Shown one piece after another: positions 16,737-23,700 of a stretch of DNA of 64,000 bases (positions within the stretch are counted from its first letter, which is position 1; each line of letters opens with the position of its first letter). The DNA is from a virus. Its lineage: Duplodnaviria; Caudoviricetes. The stretch is from the IMG/VR virus record IMGVR_UViG_2922690425_000004, positions 1-64,000 of that record; one strand, given 5' to 3'. The position numbers and the translations under genes were made by a program. The notes under the pieces were generated by a model that did no database searches, had not been told where the DNA came from, and saw nothing but the letters and a program-made list of their open reading frames with translations.

Positions 16737-18278
16737 TTAAGATAGAGCAGGGGAGACAGGGACAGGTAAGATATTTAGTTGGGTGAGCTTTTCGTTTAGT
16801 ATTGATTCGATGTTGTCAAATTCGGTATACTTGATTCGTATCAATGGGATGTTATGTGACTCGCAATAGTTGTCTTTGATCTTGTCTTTCTTTTGTTGGA
16901 GCTTGAACGTTTTTATGCCACCAAAATATTCAATGGGTTCGTAGTGTTGCTTACCGTCGAATTCTATTAGACAAATAGGTTCATTGTAACCGTCAAATAT
17001 GGCAAAATCAAAGCGAAGAGCAATTTTGTGCTTACAATTAGGATTTGAATATTGCCTAATGAAATTAAGTGTACTAGAAGAAAGATAGTCTACTATTCTT
17101 GCTTCTCCTTTTTTTTCATTGATACATGGACATCTACTATCGCCTCTAATTAAGTTAGAAGGAGTAGGTCTATAAGTTCTTCCGCATGGAATATGAAGTA
17201 CATCGATTTTAGTATTTGCACCGAGATATTCCCCTATAACTTGATAGTCATCCCCAACAGTATTCAATAACTCTTCTCTAAATTCTTCTGTGGTTTTCTT
17301 TTCATTCTTGAAACAATTAGGACATCGGCTCCCATTTCTATTTTTAGTGCCAAGGAAGCTAGCAGGAGATACTAAATATTCATGTAAGCAAGTGTTATGT
17401 CTCATTTTTATTTTAATATTATTATTTAGGTATTCTCCTAGTACGGAATACTCATTTTCAACTAATGCAAATACTTCTTTTTTAAATTCATCGGTAGTCT
17501 TTTTTATTTTACCAAAGCAATGAGGACAACGTTTCCCTGCTATAAAATTCTGAGGTTCTGTAACGTACTCCTTATGGCATTCATTATGGATAAACTTTAT
17601 ATTTGTTCTAGCATTTTTGTAGTCCCCCAGAACATCATATTCACCGTGAGTCTTATCTCTGACATACTTTTTAAATGTGTCTGTTGTGTGATATTTAACA
17701 CCACCATGGCAGTGACTACACCGTGTTCCAGAGTTAAACACCGTAGGTGCCATATGGATTATGTTTCCACATGTGTTATGTTTGATTTTGACTTTCGTTT
17801 GACTATTAATAATATCATCCATTAATTCATATTCATTTCCCACTTTATCGAATATCTGCTCTTTAAAAGTGTCTGTAGTAAGAGGTATATTTTTAGCGCA
17901 CTTAGGGCATCTCTTACCAGACAAAAAGTTTGCTGGTTTCACTTCATAAATGTGACCACAATCCATATGTTTTACTTTTAATTTATGTTCATTCGTCACA
18001 TACTTTTCAAGAAAGACATAGTGTCTTCCTGTTAGTTCATACACTTCCTTTTTGAAAGTTTCATTTGTTTTTCTGTTCGATTTTTTACATATAGGGCAAC
18101 GTCTACCGTCAATAAAATGCCCTAACCTTACCTGTTGAACATTTCCACACTTATGATGTAAAACAGAAATTTTATCAAAAGCTCCGGTGTATTCACTAAC
18201 TAAACTGTATTCGGAATTTGTTATGTCTTTTATTCTTTGTGCTACAGTATCAGCACTTAATTTTTTAGCAATTTTCAA
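16737..18278 (-). CDS. Zinc-finger-repeat endonuclease: six ~63-aa HxxC..RCxxC-type repeats plus a C-terminal Vsr/DUF559-like PD-(D/E)XK domain
   Basis: Repeats visible; FDFAI..IEFDGKQHY..DKIK..LIRI. Promoter TTTACA-17-TATAAT (18344-18316) puts the start downstream of the track's 18350. Confidence 0.7.
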   Translation of the reverse strand: MKIAKKLSADTVAQRIKDITNSEYSLVSEYTGAFDKISVLHHKCGNVQQVRLGHFIDGRRCPICKKSNRKTNETFKKEVYELTGRHYVFLEKYVTNEHKLKVKHMDCGHIYEVKPANFLSGKRCPKCAKNIPLTTDTFKEQIFDKVGNEYELMDDIINSQTKVKIKHNTCGNIIHMAPTVFNSGTRCSHCHGGVKYHTTDTFKKYVRDKTHGEYDVLGDYKNARTNIKFIHNECHKEYVTEPQNFIAGKRCPHCFGKIKKTTDEFKKEVFALVENEYSVLGEYLNNNIKIKMRHNTCLHEYLVSPASFLGTKNRNGSRCPNCFKNEKKTTEEFREELLNTVGDDYQVIGEYLGANTKIDVLHIPCGRTYRPTPSNLIRGDSRCPCINEKKGEARIVDYLSSSTLNFIRQYSNPNCKHKIALRFDFAIFDGYNEPICLIEFDGKQHYEPIEYFGGIKTFKLQQKKDKIKDNYCESHNIPLIRIKYTEFDNIESILNEKLTQLNILPVPVSPALS

Positions 18279-18421
18279 CGCCTCCATCCGAACTTCAATA
18301 ATATCGAATAATGATATTATATTACGCCTAGTGTAATTTGTAAACCGCACTAAAGCAATTTTCTATCTTGCTGACTAAACTCTGTGTTAATATGGAACTA
18401 GAAACCTGAGGAGGATATTTA

Positions 18422-18765: not shown

Positions 18766-19500
18766 TTACATCATATAGGCTTCAAGTACAATATAATTTG
18801 AGCTTTTTTTGTCTAATAGATCAATTGGTCTTTGCCCGTCCTTATTTTTGATTTTAGCATTTGCTTTGTAAGTGATTCCAGTCAGTTCCCCTAAATAAAA
18901 GTTGTTTTTATTTAGGATTGCTTCGTGAAGCGGGGAATTCCCCATATTATTCAAAATGTTCACGTTCAACGCATTCTTCTTAATCACAAGGTATGTCGCA
19001 TAATCATTCTTACGAATTACCCAGTGCAAAATTGAATCTCCATTTTCATCCTGACTGTTAATCGTCAGCTCACCAGAAGCAATCGCTGCTGCAATCTTCT
19101 CGCTATCCAGTTTATCTCCTTTTGTGTATTGATCCACGCTAAAGGTTTTACCTCCTTGCTTAACCGCTGTTGTTGCTGGCTCAATTTTTGTGCTTGTTGT
19201 AGCTGATGGGGCAGAGGAGGGAGCAGGTGTTGTTCCATTGCTTTTCACTAGCTCAATTTTACCGCCACTAGCACTTGCTACATTATAGCCCATTGCTGAA
19301 GCTGTATCTCTAAGAGGAAGATAAGCTTTACCGTTCACATTGATTGGGCTGTCGCTCAATTTCGCTTGTTCTCCATCAACTATGATCTTTGTAGGTGTCA
19401 ATGTTGCTTTTAAATATGTACTTGCTCCTGCTACGCCACTAACTGCTACTGCAACACCAAATATTGCACCAGCAAGGAACGTTGGAATTCGCTTTTTCAT
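18766..19500 (-). CDS. Secreted protein with copper-amine-oxidase N-terminal (stalk) domain and ankyrin repeats
   Basis: Signal peptide; IIVDG..PINVNGKAYLPLRD; GDSILHW and GNSPLHEA ankyrin motifs. Confidence 0.75.
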   Translation of the reverse strand: MKKRIPTFLAGAIFGVAVAVSGVAGASTYLKATLTPTKIIVDGEQAKLSDSPINVNGKAYLPLRDTASAMGYNVASASGGKIELVKSNGTTPAPSSAPSATTSTKIEPATTAVKQGGKTFSVDQYTKGDKLDSEKIAAAIASGELTINSQDENGDSILHWVIRKNDYATYLVIKKNALNVNILNNMGNSPLHEAILNKNNFYLGELTGITYKANAKIKNKDGQRPIDLLDKKSSNYIVLEAYMM

Positions 19501-19661
19501 TGTATATCCTCCAATTATTCGATTAGCATATGATTTTACACATACTTACAATATATATCGGATAGGAGGGAGTGGAAGTTTATAGGAAACAGCCTTACTA
19601 GTTAAGAGATAATTCGTGATTAAACTGATTGCTCAGCTAATCCAAAATATCTTTTGATTAA

Positions 19662-19777
19662 ACACAAAAGAACTCACAATATTGTGAGTTCCCTTGATTA
19701 GTCTTTGGGTAAAGCATAGTATTGGATAAAACATAGTCTTTTTAAAAATTAGTTTTAGGTAAAGCATAGTCTTATTT
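19662..19777 (-). ncRNA. Putative small RNA of about five tandem 16-17-nt repeats downstream of the NYN gene
   Basis: Consensus promoter upstream; units AAGACTATGCTTTACCT / AAAACTAATTTTTAAA / AAGACTATGTTTTATCC / AATACTATGCTTTACCC / AAAGACTAATC; terminator palindrome at 19670-19691 followed by a T tract. Confidence 0.65.
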
Positions 19778-19783
19778 ATAACA

Positions 19784-19812
19784 ATTATATTCCTTGGATC
19801 AGTATTTGTCAA
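19784..19812 (-). promoter_or_regulatory. Perfect sigmaA promoter overlapping the NYN stop codon
   Basis: TTGACA(19812-19807)-17 nt-TATAAT(19789-19784). Confidence 0.85.
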
Positions 19813-20687
19813 ATATTTCTGATGTATTTTTTATAAACATTTTTTATAAATTCATCGTTAATGCAATTACTTATTCGATTAATGGGATTGTTGGAATTAA
19901 ACAAGTATAAATATTCATCAGTAATTATTCCTTCAAATTCTTTTCCATATTCAACGCCTTCATTATTTTTTAGGCGATATTTATGAATTATTATCTTTCC
20001 TTCTAATTCAAGTTTATTTAGAAGGCGCACAAATTCGTATTCAAAGATGTTGTACCACGACAAGCTGTTTTCCGTGAATCTCTGTAAAGACAATAGTGGA
20101 GGTGTTTTCTGTTTATCTACATACTCTTTTTTTATATGGGCATTAAGATTGTGATATATATTTTCAGTAAGATGAGAGTCATTTTTCGCTTCTATTTCGT
20201 ACAAATCCTCAAAAAATGAATGAGATGTTGGTGTATGTAGTATTAAATCACTACTATTCTGAGAAGTAATAAGATGAACAAACCCCTTTTGCTTTTTGAT
20301 CGCTTTTATTAAAGGAGTCATATCTTTATCGTCTGATATTAAGACTACGCCATCAATTAGATTGTTTTGAAAAATCATTTCCATTGTATCAACTGCTATT
20401 TGAATATCTGCACAATTTTTTCCAGTGTTAGATGTGTGCCTTGTTTCAATACCAAACTCATGTAGTTTTGATTGATGGCGTGAGTTATACATATCAGGCA
20501 AATCGAAATTACAATATGCTATAATGTCAATTACATTCATAGATTTACCTTGTAAATACTTTCTTAAACGATTAAAAAAATCCTTCTCAAAAACATTGGT
20601 GTAGTCATTTCTTAAATTGTAGTGTACATTTTCATAATCAATCATAACACAGACGTTTCTAATCATTTCATTCACTCTGTTCATCAC
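19809..20687 (-). CDS. NYN (LabA/DUF88, PIN-like) ribonuclease domain protein with C-terminal winged-helix-like region
   Basis: VMIDYENV, KNCADIQIAVD and VLISDDKDMTPL carry the conserved acidic residues. Confidence 0.85.
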   Translation of the reverse strand: MMNRVNEMIRNVCVMIDYENVHYNLRNDYTNVFEKDFFNRLRKYLQGKSMNVIDIIAYCNFDLPDMYNSRHQSKLHEFGIETRHTSNTGKNCADIQIAVDTMEMIFQNNLIDGVVLISDDKDMTPLIKAIKKQKGFVHLITSQNSSDLILHTPTSHSFFEDLYEIEAKNDSHLTENIYHNLNAHIKKEYVDKQKTPPLLSLQRFTENSLSWYNIFEYEFVRLLNKLELEGKIIIHKYRLKNNEGVEYGKEFEGIITDEYLYLFNSNNPINRISNCINDEFIKNVYKKYIRNI

Positions 20688-20796
20688 TCTCCTATAATTC
20701 TACTATACGACATATGGGAACATATTCCTATAGAACAAATGTTTTATATAGTCGTATAGTAGGAGAGAGGAGAGAGAAAGATAGTAGTCTTAAGGT

Positions 20797-23700
20797 TTAC
20801 ATGAAGTCGTAGCGAGTACCGTTGAAGGTGATTTTGCCATCAGCAGAGAGAACGATGGAGGCTTTACCGTTGGAGATTTTTATTTCATTTTGGTTGCTTA
20901 TTATTGATACCTGATTTGCTTTTGCGATAAAATTCCCGCCATCACTGTTTATAACAATACCTAAATCTTGTAAACTTACACTTCTTTCTTTTCCGGTGTT
21001 GCTTGCTCCATACAAAAAATCAAAAGAACCATTAGGTTTATTTATAAAACCTTTGCCGCTTTTCTCAGTTGCTCCATCACCAATACCCATTTGGATATAT
21101 GGAGTTGCAGCATCGCCAGAACCATCAAATGAAAACTTAGCTTTTACTTTTTCTTCCATACTATATTCCAAGACGGGCCATTCAGTTTCATCTACAGTCA
21201 TTTCTCCAGATTGAGTTGAGTTTTTCCAATACAAAGCTCTGCCATCAGCCAATTTCTTTTGTGTGCCAGCACCATTGACTTTCCCAGTGATCCATTTTGC
21301 TTCGTTACTTTCTATTCGAATGTAGTTCGACCAATCAGTAAGAGCAGCATTTGTTAAAGTCGATAGTTTACCCGCTACAAGCGAGCTTACAAAGCCCTCT
21401 GTGGCTGTAACTATATTAGCTGCCAGTAATTGAGTATCAATCATCCCAGCTCCAATCAAATCCCACCCATTGAGGTCGAATTTGCCGTTTCCAGTGTCGG
21501 CAAGAAATCTACCATCAGGCTTGGTGAGCAACACATTCTTGAATCTGGCACGACCGTCCATGTAGATCGCCGCTGGCGCACTGTCTTGCTGGAGACCGCC
21601 TACCCGAAATCCCGATGAATCCAATACGATTACTCTGTTTCCTCCACCAACTATTACCTGACCATCTTGGAATACTCCACCTTTTGCATACATTACACCG
21701 TCTGGCGACACTCGGAACGGGGAATCCGAGAACTGCTCTGATCCCAAGTAGATACCCTGCATATCGGCAGAAAATACATAATTACCTTTACCTATACGAA
21801 TTGATCCATCAGCAATAATACTATCACTAATTCTCAAATTTTGAGCATTTAACAATCCATCCAAACTAGTCCACAATGTTTTTTTATATGTTGTTCCACT
21901 TTTCTGGTCAATAAAGAAACCTGAATCACTATCAATTCCTACATGATTAATTACACTAGTATTGCCACAATCAGTAGAAGCGTAATGATTAAATCGTAAC
22001 CCAAACTTATCTGGATTTTCTTCCAATAGCCCAAGCTTAACGACTTCACGTTTACATCTATCCTGAATGGTTAGTTTAGAGCCTTCGATAGTGAATACAC
22101 CAGTTGTATCACCAATTACTACACGTTCACCAAGGATAATTTTTCCAAGCACTTGTTCTGCAATCAATCCATCGGCGCTGAGGGCTGTCTCGAATTTTTG
22201 CCCTCCTGAGCGTGTAAGACCAATCGCCCCCGACGTCATTTTAAGGTATCTCATGGGATTTTTTTCATCATAAACAGTGATGCCAGTGTGATCCAGTGTA
22301 ACTGTTTCATTAATCGCCATCTCTAAACGCTCTTTTTCTCTATTCCAGACATTTTCAAACAGCTTATTCATTTCACTTGAATCAAACACTGCTTTATCAT
22401 ATTTGAACTTATTTAGATCCAACGTAACTCCATGAGTCCGTACATCTTGAAACAACTTATCAAATTCATTGCCCATTCTACTTACATCTTTTACATTAGA
22501 TATCGTCAGACTAATATTCGACTGTTCATAATCATATTCAATCTTAATTATTCTTGCCGTAACATCTACGCCAGTTGGCTCATATTTGATGTTAACGAAA
22601 TCACCAAGATTCATCTTCTTCCAATCATATTGTGCTTCAATTATCTCTAAGAAGTTAACAATATCGATCTCCATGCTAAGTTGTGGACGTAGCAATTCTT
22701 TGAACTTCTTCATTGTTTCATCGTACAAATCTTGCTCATCTATGTATTTACTGTCTGAGTAGTCCTGCGTAATAATATATGAGTCGCTTAACTCCATCAT
22801 TTGCTCATGTGTAAAGTTCTTATCATATGCAAATGTACTTCTCAGGTTGCTTATCTTGTTGGAAACAGTAGTCAAATTAGCTTTAACAGCATCAATTTCA
22901 GCTTGTTTCTGTTTAATCTGCATTTCCTTATTATCTAAACTGTATCGCTCAATAATCTTTGAATCAGTGCCAGAATCATACTCATCTATGCTAATGTTAC
23001 ATACCTGAATGTATACACCCGTATTGCCACCGCTAATAGAGACATTGACATGATCCTGATATCGAACCTTACCCAGAAGTCTCCATTGATTAGAAGAAAC
23101 GGCTTTATTCGATCTATCTAAACTAACTGTAACACCAGTTGTGTCATCAACCTTAATCATAACCGCATAACCAAAATCAGAAGACAATTTGAAGCTACGT
23201 GAACTGCTACCAGAATGCTCATACTTCTCAAAAAACATCTTCAAATCAAATTGTTGAGATATTTTCGTATCTGCAACTACAACTTCATTTTTTACTAGCT
23301 TATCCATATCAACTTCAAGAAGAGCTAGTTGCTTTTCATAGCCTTGTTGTTCCTTGAGGTATGCATTAAACTCTGTTTTCTTTGATTCAATTAATGCTTC
23401 AAAGTCGAGTAGGGCATGACACAACGAATCACTCATGTAATCACTGTGTCTAATGACATTCCGATTAGCATCCCGTTCAAATGGATACATGAAATATTGA
23501 AAGCTTTCTACATAGTTTTGCCCAGTAGGATTTACTTTTTCAAATGTCATGTCATCCTGACCAAACCCCTTTAACCTTGTGACTATAGGTTCAGAGGTTG
23601 AATGTCTAGTCATCGATTTTAAATACTTATTCCAACTAAAGGTCAATCCTTTATTTGTACCAGTCAGTTCAGGTTTTTGTAATGAAATGGTGTTTTTATC

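Follow-up and report, generated by a model that had tools for sequence, protein, structure and literature searches.

The NYN gene and its downstream RNA

The locus analysed here lies in the first 64 kilobases (kb) of a 160-kb provirus record (IMG/VR record IMGVR_UViG_2922690425_000004, Caudoviricetes), a stretch of 64,000 nucleotides (nt) that is called the window below. On its minus strand, a gene for a NYN nuclease domain joined to a C-terminal winged helix is followed, at its very stop codon, by the promoter of a predicted small RNA (sRNA) which is built of short tandem repeats and closed by a terminator. The coordinates of these features are collected in Table 1. The pair of NYN gene and RNA gene is a real and conserved feature. 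Of about 46 distinct homologous loci, about 34 by our own count share this arrangement: a near-consensus promoter placed at the stop codon or shortly past it, then a non-coding stretch of about 90-130 nt, then a terminator. The pair appears to be undescribed so far.

An earlier note, made from the letters of the window, had claimed that the TGA stop codon of the NYN gene sits inside a perfect TTGACA-17-TATAAT promoter. This was confirmed, as the stop lies within the -35 hexamer and the promoter agrees with the consensus at every position. The 12/12 promoter is the sole minus-strand promoter-like site within 19400-20900; in this region four promoter-like sites were found against 8.6 expected from shuffles, that is fewer than in shuffled sequence. 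The RNA body downstream of it is A/U-rich and G-poor, and is predicted to be unpaired except for the terminator. No motif resembling a Shine-Dalgarno (SD) sequence occurs in the body, and a hairpin terminator closes the RNA, both in accordance with the earlier note; two of the 14 base pairs in the terminator stem are G.U pairs. A search of Rfam gave no match for the window RNA (E up to 10) or for the RNAs of 12 homologous loci (E up to 0.1).

The same note had counted about five repeat units of 16-17 nt in about 115 nt. Tandem Repeats Finder reported a period of 17 with 4.5 copies at 19699-19774 (70% matches, score 59), which bears out the count; three of these units agree closely with the consensus of the earlier note (0, 0 and 1 mismatches), unit 2 departs from it and unit 5 is incomplete. 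The periods of 33 and 17 nt were nearly equal in strength (0.61 and 0.54) because unit 2 deviates from the other units, and the best value was reached by 0 of 1000 shuffles. A 33-nt double unit is an alternative reading of the window array. Copies of the repeat motif and sites complementary to it were searched on both strands of the window and of the 160-kb provirus. At no more than one mismatch, the three good units were the sole copies in the provirus, and one match with two mismatches was found elsewhere, at 137016-137031 on the plus strand.

Table 1. Features of the NYN locus (positions are those of the window unless a locus is named)
Feature	Position	Strand	Basis or remark
Gene of the NYN-winged-helix protein, 292 amino acids	19809..20687	minus	Open reading frame list; GTG start 20687, ATG at 20684, TGA stop 19809-19811
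NYN (PIN-like) nuclease domain, residues ~10-165	20193..20660	minus	Alignment, Pfam, structural matches over model residues 8-165
Linker helix and C-terminal winged-helix domain, residues 166-292	19812..20192	minus	Domain model, pLDDT 93
sRNA promoter	19784..19812	minus	-35 TTGACA 19812-19807, 17-nt spacer, -10 TATAAT 19789-19784; 12/12 match
Predicted non-coding RNA, ~115 nt	~19777 to ~19661	minus	Start placed ~7 nt past the -10 hexamer; 3' end at the T-tract of the terminator
Repeat unit 1 (AAGACTATGCTTTACCT)	19757..19773	minus	
Repeat unit 2, deviant (AAAACTAATTTTTAAA)	19741..19756	minus	Similar deviant second unit in L004
Repeat unit 3 (AAGACTATGTTTTATCC)	19724..19740	minus	
Repeat unit 4 (AATACTATGCTTTACCC)	19707..19723	minus	
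Partial unit 5 (AAAGACTAAT), adjoining the terminator stem	19697..19706	minus	Partial last unit entering the terminator likewise in L004, L009, L044
Intrinsic terminator hairpin	19665..19696	minus	14-bp stem including two G.U pairs, 4-nt loop, then T-rich tail
5' leader hairpin of the NYN mRNA	20687..20767	minus	Inverted repeats; pairs the SD (AGGAGAG) with upstream CUCUCCU
Long-hairpin RNA of homologous loci, ~100 nt, conserved GAGC...GAGCUAGC core	L018:3434-3530, L092:2419-2516, L101:2434-2535, L105:2447-2543, L091:2478-2572		Compensatory base changes; not in Rfam

The NYN protein

The open reading frame (ORF) of 292 amino acids (aa) matched the Pfam NYN family (PF01936) over residues 12-147 and scored 79.3 bits where the cut-off is 24.2 (E 5.3e-22). 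The earlier note had stated that the gene keeps its conserved Asp residues. The alignment is in agreement with this, as D17, D94, D100, D120 and D122 are invariant in 26 aligned homologues and likewise in 44 of the 44 loci checked; the active site is intact. The AlphaFold2 (AF2) model of the protein, with a predicted local distance difference test (pLDDT) of 90, revealed the NYN domain, a long helix and a C-terminal domain. The NYN domain was matched by the NYN domain of mouse MARF1 with Z 18.5 (root-mean-square deviation 2.9 over 149 residues) and by VPA0982 with Z 17.6. From its fold and residues, the protein is predicted to be a ribonuclease.

The C-terminal domain, modelled alone, matched mainly winged-helix domains with Z 6-7.7. 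They made up most of the top 50 matches and included the winged helix of ORC2 (Z 7.7), the RNA-bound SelB-SECIS winged helix (Z 6.9) and the LOTUS domain of MARF1 (Z 6.1), the last being no better than many other winged helices. The model therefore establishes a generic winged-helix fold and does not imply membership of a family. The domain had no Pfam match at E up to 10, OST-HTH included, and a search of the ESM Atlas with it was uninformative, all scores being below 0.8. The mean pairwise identity among homologues was 51% for the NYN domain and 23% for the C-terminal part. Such faster divergence of the winged helix would be expected if it reads an RNA that is specific to each locus.

Conservation of the layout among homologues

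The DNA around homologues was drawn from assemblies, species-representative genomes, IMG/VR and metagenomes, and the loci were labelled L001, L003 and so on. The family of the NYN protein is small, with 34 clusters in a word-indexed protein search. In an exhaustive protein search, E<=1e-30 left 58 representatives, and the 4570 obtained at E<=1e-3 mostly share the NYN domain alone. The homologous loci reach down to about 30% identity and belong to Bacillota and Fusobacteriota. Relatives in IMG/VR were limited to one of 98% identity and two members of a distant clade. Against the phage collection, blastn with the locus gave no match and tblastn one match of 25% coverage, and the PLSDB plasmids yielded NYN-domain-level matches in Burkholderia/Caballeronia only, with no full-length relative.

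The earlier note had proposed that homologues be collected and inspected for a conserved downstream promoter, repeats and terminator. The outcome was positive across clades and mobile elements, the RNA being of the tandem-repeat kind in about 16 of the roughly 34 RNA-bearing loci. The relatives of 98%, 69%, 56% and 46% identity all have the promoter at or just after the stop, four to six tandem A/U-rich units and the terminator, and the unit sequences differ among them. The same layout of promoter, repeats and terminator was found in genomes of Intestinibacter, Pseudobacteroides, Paenibacillus and Fusobacterium, in a phage contig, in an element with ParA, resolvase and ArdC genes, and in several metagenome contigs. 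The stop codon overlaps the -35 hexamer in L003 and L010 as well, and is a few bases away from it in L016, L027, L042 and L044. In the 21 loci with a promoter found by script and a terminator belonging to the sRNA itself, the predicted transcript measures 88-129 nt. In the clade of the window and in several others the RNA comprises four to six tandem units, 12-20 nt long and A/U-rich; their periodicity is significant in most loci of the repeat type, and their sequence varies by locus.

The layout was also scored by a fixed rule: the promoter had to agree with the consensus at no fewer than 10/12 positions and lie within 72 nt of the stop, and the terminator had to give a transcript of 70-140 nt. 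All ORFs of the window and 17 loci that reach 150 aa were scored in this way. Among the NYN genes 14 of 18 have the layout, among the other ORFs 0 of 115, and a chance layout is excluded by this result. The four NYN genes below the threshold have a layout that is alike by eye. The possibility that the RNA element is a leader or attenuator of the downstream gene was ruled out, since the downstream genes vary among the loci and the one in L003 is convergent. In L072 the promoter after the NYN homologue was likewise rejected as an sRNA promoter; it was assigned to the gene of a heat-shock operon with a CIRCE operator (TTAGCACTC-N9-GAGTGCTAA), which we take to be hrcA from the N-terminus of its protein. 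The homologous locus L019 has a weaker candidate for a downstream RNA.

The view of the earlier note that this architecture is undescribed has held in Rfam, PADLOC and the literature searched, none of which shows a match. In PADLOC the NYN protein and two of its homologues matched weakly and at the level of the domain (NYN nuclease model, HEC-09; E 2e-5 to 6e-4), and no listed system was found. A literature search on NYN/LabA proteins in combination with toxin-antitoxin (TA) systems of type III, antitoxins, sRNAs, anti-phage function or non-coding RNA revealed no description of the pairing.

Nature of the RNA and its divergence with the protein

The predicted RNA is non-coding. Four of the homologous RNAs (L006, L009, L010 and L051) lack the start codons ATG, GTG and TTG altogether, and the remaining ones contain only short, non-homologous frames; essentially no SD-like motif occurs in the RNA bodies. 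The transcribed strand is consistently G-poor, with 4-17% G. In a clade of Lachnospiraceae/Oscillospiraceae, with 30-34% protein identity, the slot from promoter to terminator holds a long hairpin and not repeats. Comparison of five such loci revealed compensatory changes in 14 of the 38 predicted pairs, about half of them within the terminator stem, which argues that the element acts as RNA. Other forms of the RNA were also seen. L016 (3378-3492) and L027 (3390-3508) combine a single or double UAAGAGUUGAUUUUU-like unit with a small covarying stem after it (UGAC/GUCA in one form, UGAUG/CAUCA in the other), and L060 (2385-2598) and L066 (1183-1303) have a stem with GGCUUG/CAAGCC in one form and GACUUG/CAAGUC in the other.

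A maximum-likelihood tree of 22 NYN proteins was compared with the repeat motifs, and the motif tracks the well-supported protein clades. The motif UAAGAKUAUUAAU goes with the clade of L010 and L042, GAAUUGA with that of L012 and L044, and AUAA..G.UUU with that of L011 and L043, while the clade of the window, L003, L004 and L006 has motifs of the AAGAC/AACUU types. Judged from these sequences, the RNA has evolved jointly with the protein.

Leader of the NYN mRNA and genomic context

The leader hairpin upstream of the NYN gene (Table 1) has a fold energy of -35.3 kcal/mol (z -4.6), and 0 of 200 shuffles were equally stable. It is also present in L001, the 98% relative, and could be a translational lock or an operator. 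An inner near-palindrome, GGAATATGTTCC, lies in its loop region. No promoter-like site of at least 9/12 was found upstream of the NYN gene of the window. With the SD locked in the leader and a consensus promoter driving the RNA, a low output of protein and a large excess of RNA are to be expected. A solitary AAGACTAC, which resembles the start of a repeat unit, was noted at 20781-20792 on the minus strand, directly past the stop of the tail gene and upstream of the NYN leader; it may well be there by chance.

In the window the NYN gene stands among prophage accessory genes past the tail genes. It comes after ORFs of 2362 aa and 1151 aa, which from size and position are a putative tape-measure and tail protein, and nearly all large ORFs of the window are on the minus strand. 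The accessory block of the NYN gene also encodes, at 16737-18350 on the minus strand, a 537-aa protein with about eight zinc-ribbon/treble-clef modules and a C-terminal DUF2726 (E 1.9e-7), for which PADLOC gave no match. A 244-aa protein encoded at 18766-19500, again on the minus strand, combines a domain resembling the N-terminal domain of copper amine oxidase with ankyrin repeats and has a weak PADLOC match to PDC-M72A (E 5.8e-5). Its hydrophobic N-terminus looks like a signal peptide.

Elsewhere, the NYN gene was found between the integrase and portal genes of a phage contig, in an element with ParA-like, resolvase and ArdC genes, and at one locus about 0.8 kb upstream of a PemK-family toxin gene. 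In Bacillus cereus (L006:501-2858) the module of NYN gene and RNA lies in Tn7-like cargo with TniQ/TnsD upstream; it directly follows the gene of a SIR2 protein, which matches the PADLOC candidate PDC-S25 at E 1.8e-79, and is itself followed by that of a DUF6414 protein. Judged from the neighbouring genes, the contexts of the family are mobile or defence-related. In the chromosomal loci L020-L024 of Faecalispora/Clostridium the gene is succeeded by one or two terminators and then by a stretch of about 300 bp bounded by inverted CCTTTTCATTATATATAG-like motifs; this stretch could represent a small mobile element, or else an attachment site.

Proposed mechanism and alternative explanations

Our preferred reading, to which we give an even chance, is that the pair is a two-part module of mobile elements with an RNase as toxin and an RNA as antitoxin, working as a system of the type III-like toxin-antitoxin, abortive-infection or addiction kind; its toxin fold would be new, its genes stand in reversed order and its repeats are much shorter. 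The sequences establish the anatomy of the pair and how far it is conserved, the joint divergence of RNA and protein, the non-coding character of the RNA, both protein folds and the intact active site; that the RNA binds and inhibits a toxic protein, what sets the protein free and whether phages are affected are inferences. The NYN endoribonuclease, fused to its winged helix, would be accompanied by a cognate sRNA of about 115 nt made from its own near-perfect sigma-A-type promoter. The NYN protein would bind each repeat unit and might also cleave it slowly, and the fast-evolving winged helix would read the sequence of the unit. The abundant repeat RNA would thereby keep the nuclease occupied and harmless. 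Once the labile RNA is no longer replenished, for instance when a phage shuts off transcription or when the element is lost, the nuclease would be set free to cut RNA of the cell and of the phage. The excess of RNA would be set by the second, consensus promoter placed after the gene. As no terminator intervenes between gene and repeats, the mRNA of the nuclease carries the repeats at its 3' end, so that the gene's own transcript would also end in repeats.

In favour of this reading stand the specific linkage of gene and RNA, the joint divergence of unit motif and protein, the rapid change of the winged helix, the compensatory pairs of the hairpin clade, the invariant Asp residues with the MARF1-like fold, the mobile or defence-related contexts, the SD locked in the leader of the window and the swapped order on record for one toxIN locus. 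The locked SD is also indirect evidence that the protein may be toxic without its RNA, whereas the active site kept in RNA-less clades speaks against such toxicity. Several observations weigh against the reading. The partner RNA is non-repetitive in part of the family, and another part has no adjacent RNA that could be detected, with all catalytic residues kept (the chromosomal loci L020-L024, and L025, L057, L064, L067 and L069). In L020, L023 and L025 no upstream RNA was seen either. The protein is thus tolerable alone in these clades, or another inhibitor exists. The sequestering of the SD in the leader is hardly a trait of the family, being partial in L004 and L042 and absent in L003, L006, L043 and L046. 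The units, 12-20 nt long, G-poor and apparently unstructured, also differ from the 31-62 nt repeats of type III systems, and such short unstructured units leave no possibility of a type III pseudoknot. Finally, the family is small (58 clusters at E<=1e-30) and is missing from the curated defence models save at the level of the domain. The structural part of the earlier note's proposal is borne out, while its functional part, in which an abundant repeat RNA would bind or decoy the RNase and loss of transcription would free it for abortive infection, is qualified by the distant clades with a hairpin RNA and by the RNA-less clades with an intact active site.

An alternative explanation, which we consider unlikely, is a ribonucleoprotein in which the NYN enzyme processes the array and the winged helix retains the unit RNAs, which serve the nuclease as cofactor, guide or determinant of specificity. 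The linkage of gene and RNA fits it equally well, as does the divergence of the RNA together with the fast-evolving winged helix. Regular spacing and a last unit that is partial would suit processing into units, and the RNA-less clades with their kept active site indicate that the protein need not be lethal alone. A guide function is disfavoured by the targets, however, since complements of the units in the provirus occur at chance level (3-mismatch matches in the window and the one 2-mismatch match at 137016-137031), and the units themselves are A/U-rich and wholly different among loci. Pfam and structure searches revealed no helicase, Argonaute or other guide-using domain in the NYN protein, and the hairpin-type RNAs of other clades are unlike guides. 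If this explanation is carried further, the family would form a class of RNA-programmed nucleases, in which the enzyme's own array is cut into units of about 17 nt that are held by the winged helix and set when and on what the nuclease acts. Phages, plasmids and transposons would then possess a minimal immune effector that depends on RNA and is unlike both type III TA and CRISPR; we regard this as a long shot.

It is decidedly unlikely that the RNA is an independent regulatory or sponge RNA, which acts on the host by titrating an RNA-binding protein or by pairing with mRNAs, while the NYN enzyme serves only to mature it or turn it over. Having a consensus promoter and a terminator to itself, the RNA could be produced without the protein, and short motifs in several copies are typical of sRNAs that sequester proteins, CsrB/RsmZ and CrcZ among them. 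A sponge for a conserved host factor should, however, preserve a common motif, whereas the units change by locus and track the tree of the NYN proteins, and neither in the provirus nor in the phage collection was the RNA found apart from the NYN gene.

The repeats could also act as DNA, providing tandem sites for the winged helix or for another DNA-binding protein in autoregulation, as a roadblock or in an iteron-like manner, with the promoter and terminator being incidental. Winged helices mostly bind DNA, most of the structural matches are DNA-binding winged helices, and tandem repeats of 16-17 bp resemble operator arrays. Against this, the repeats always have a near-consensus promoter before them and a terminator behind, keep one orientation and form part of a unit of constant length (21 loci), and their transcribed strand is G-poor throughout. 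Related clades substitute a hairpin whose compensatory changes point to selection for RNA pairing, and the enzyme domain has an RNase fold. Taken together, these points make a DNA function very improbable.

The product could lastly be a small peptide, the earlier note having named a 44-codon ORF as the possible functional product, or the stretch a chance AT-rich 3' untranslated region; each good unit of the window does contain an ATG and the ORF spans unit 1 through the terminator, but no SD accompanies it, four homologous RNAs dispense with every start codon and the 14/18 against 0/115 control excludes a chance region, so that this explanation is barely credible.

Should the RNA neutralise the nuclease, as in the toxin-antitoxin reading, the module would constitute a type III-like family with the unrelated PIN/NYN toxin fold. 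The excess of RNA would then be set differently, by a separate consensus promoter after the gene, and recognition would occur through short linear units and not through pseudoknots. A group of bacterial NYN/LabA-like proteins, uncharacterised so far, would gain a function, and a candidate defence module carried by a prophage would be added in Bacillota. With units specific to the locus and a fast-evolving winged helix, the family would moreover offer a natural set of orthogonal RNA-protein pairs in which the encoding of specificity can be studied.

Comparison with known systems

CsrB/RsmZ (for CsrA) and CrcZ (for Hfq/Crc) are abundant sRNAs that carry a repeated short motif and titrate global regulators encoded elsewhere, the motif being universal. 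The RNA described here resembles them in having several copies of a short motif that would titrate an RNA-binding protein. It differs from them in being tied to one nuclease gene and in having a motif that is specific to the locus.

On the protein side, the nearest comparison is with MARF1 and the LabA-like PIN-OST-HTH proteins, in which a NYN RNase domain is likewise fused to a domain of the winged-helix type that is predicted to recruit RNA. NYN-OST-HTH proteins have been predicted to be stand-alone systems of RNA degradation, and no dedicated partner RNA gene was given for them (Matelska et al. 2017, PMC5499597). The present protein differs from these in that its C-terminal domain lacks a sequence match to OST-HTH.

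To our knowledge, type III toxin-antitoxin systems come from just three related toxin families. The present module shares with ToxIN, CptIN and TenpIN the tight linkage of a predicted endoribonuclease gene to a non-coding RNA of tandem repeats (four to six units here), with a partial last repeat. The 4.5 copies of period 17 in the window and the arrays of about 16 homologous loci agree with the tandem repeats that define type III systems. As in these systems, a constitutive-looking promoter and a terminator would set the RNA above the protein, the carriers are mobile DNA (phages, plasmids, islands), and the sequence of the repeat is specific to the locus and evolves with the protein.

In type III systems the repeats are 31-62 nt long, number 1.9-5.6 copies and lie upstream of the toxin with a terminator between (Blower et al. 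2012, PMC3401426). The terminator between the repeats and the toxin gene of ToxIN limits transcription of the toxin (PMC3401426). The statement of the earlier note that type III repeats are longer and placed upstream agrees with that survey, which also contains one swapped locus. In this toxIN locus of Lactobacillus jensenii the repeats and terminator are downstream of the toxin and a promoter is predicted between (PMC3401426). The order of toxin, promoter and repeats is therefore the same as here; there it belongs to a ToxN homologue with canonical long repeats and is an unexplained exception, whereas here it is the rule of the family.

The candidate toxin of the present module is a NYN/PIN-like domain with a winged helix and not a protein of the ToxN, CptN or TenpN type. 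Its RNA lies downstream, with a promoter of its own that overlaps the stop codon and a terminator after the repeats, and part of the family uses a hairpin RNA without repeats. Because the toxin family, the gene order and the length and structure of the repeats all differ from those of type III systems, the module was not filed as ToxIN, CptIN or TenpIN. Blower et al. 2012 predicted that further type III families would be found (PMC3401426). The module of NYN protein and repeat RNA, though not filed with these systems, may still work like a type III system.

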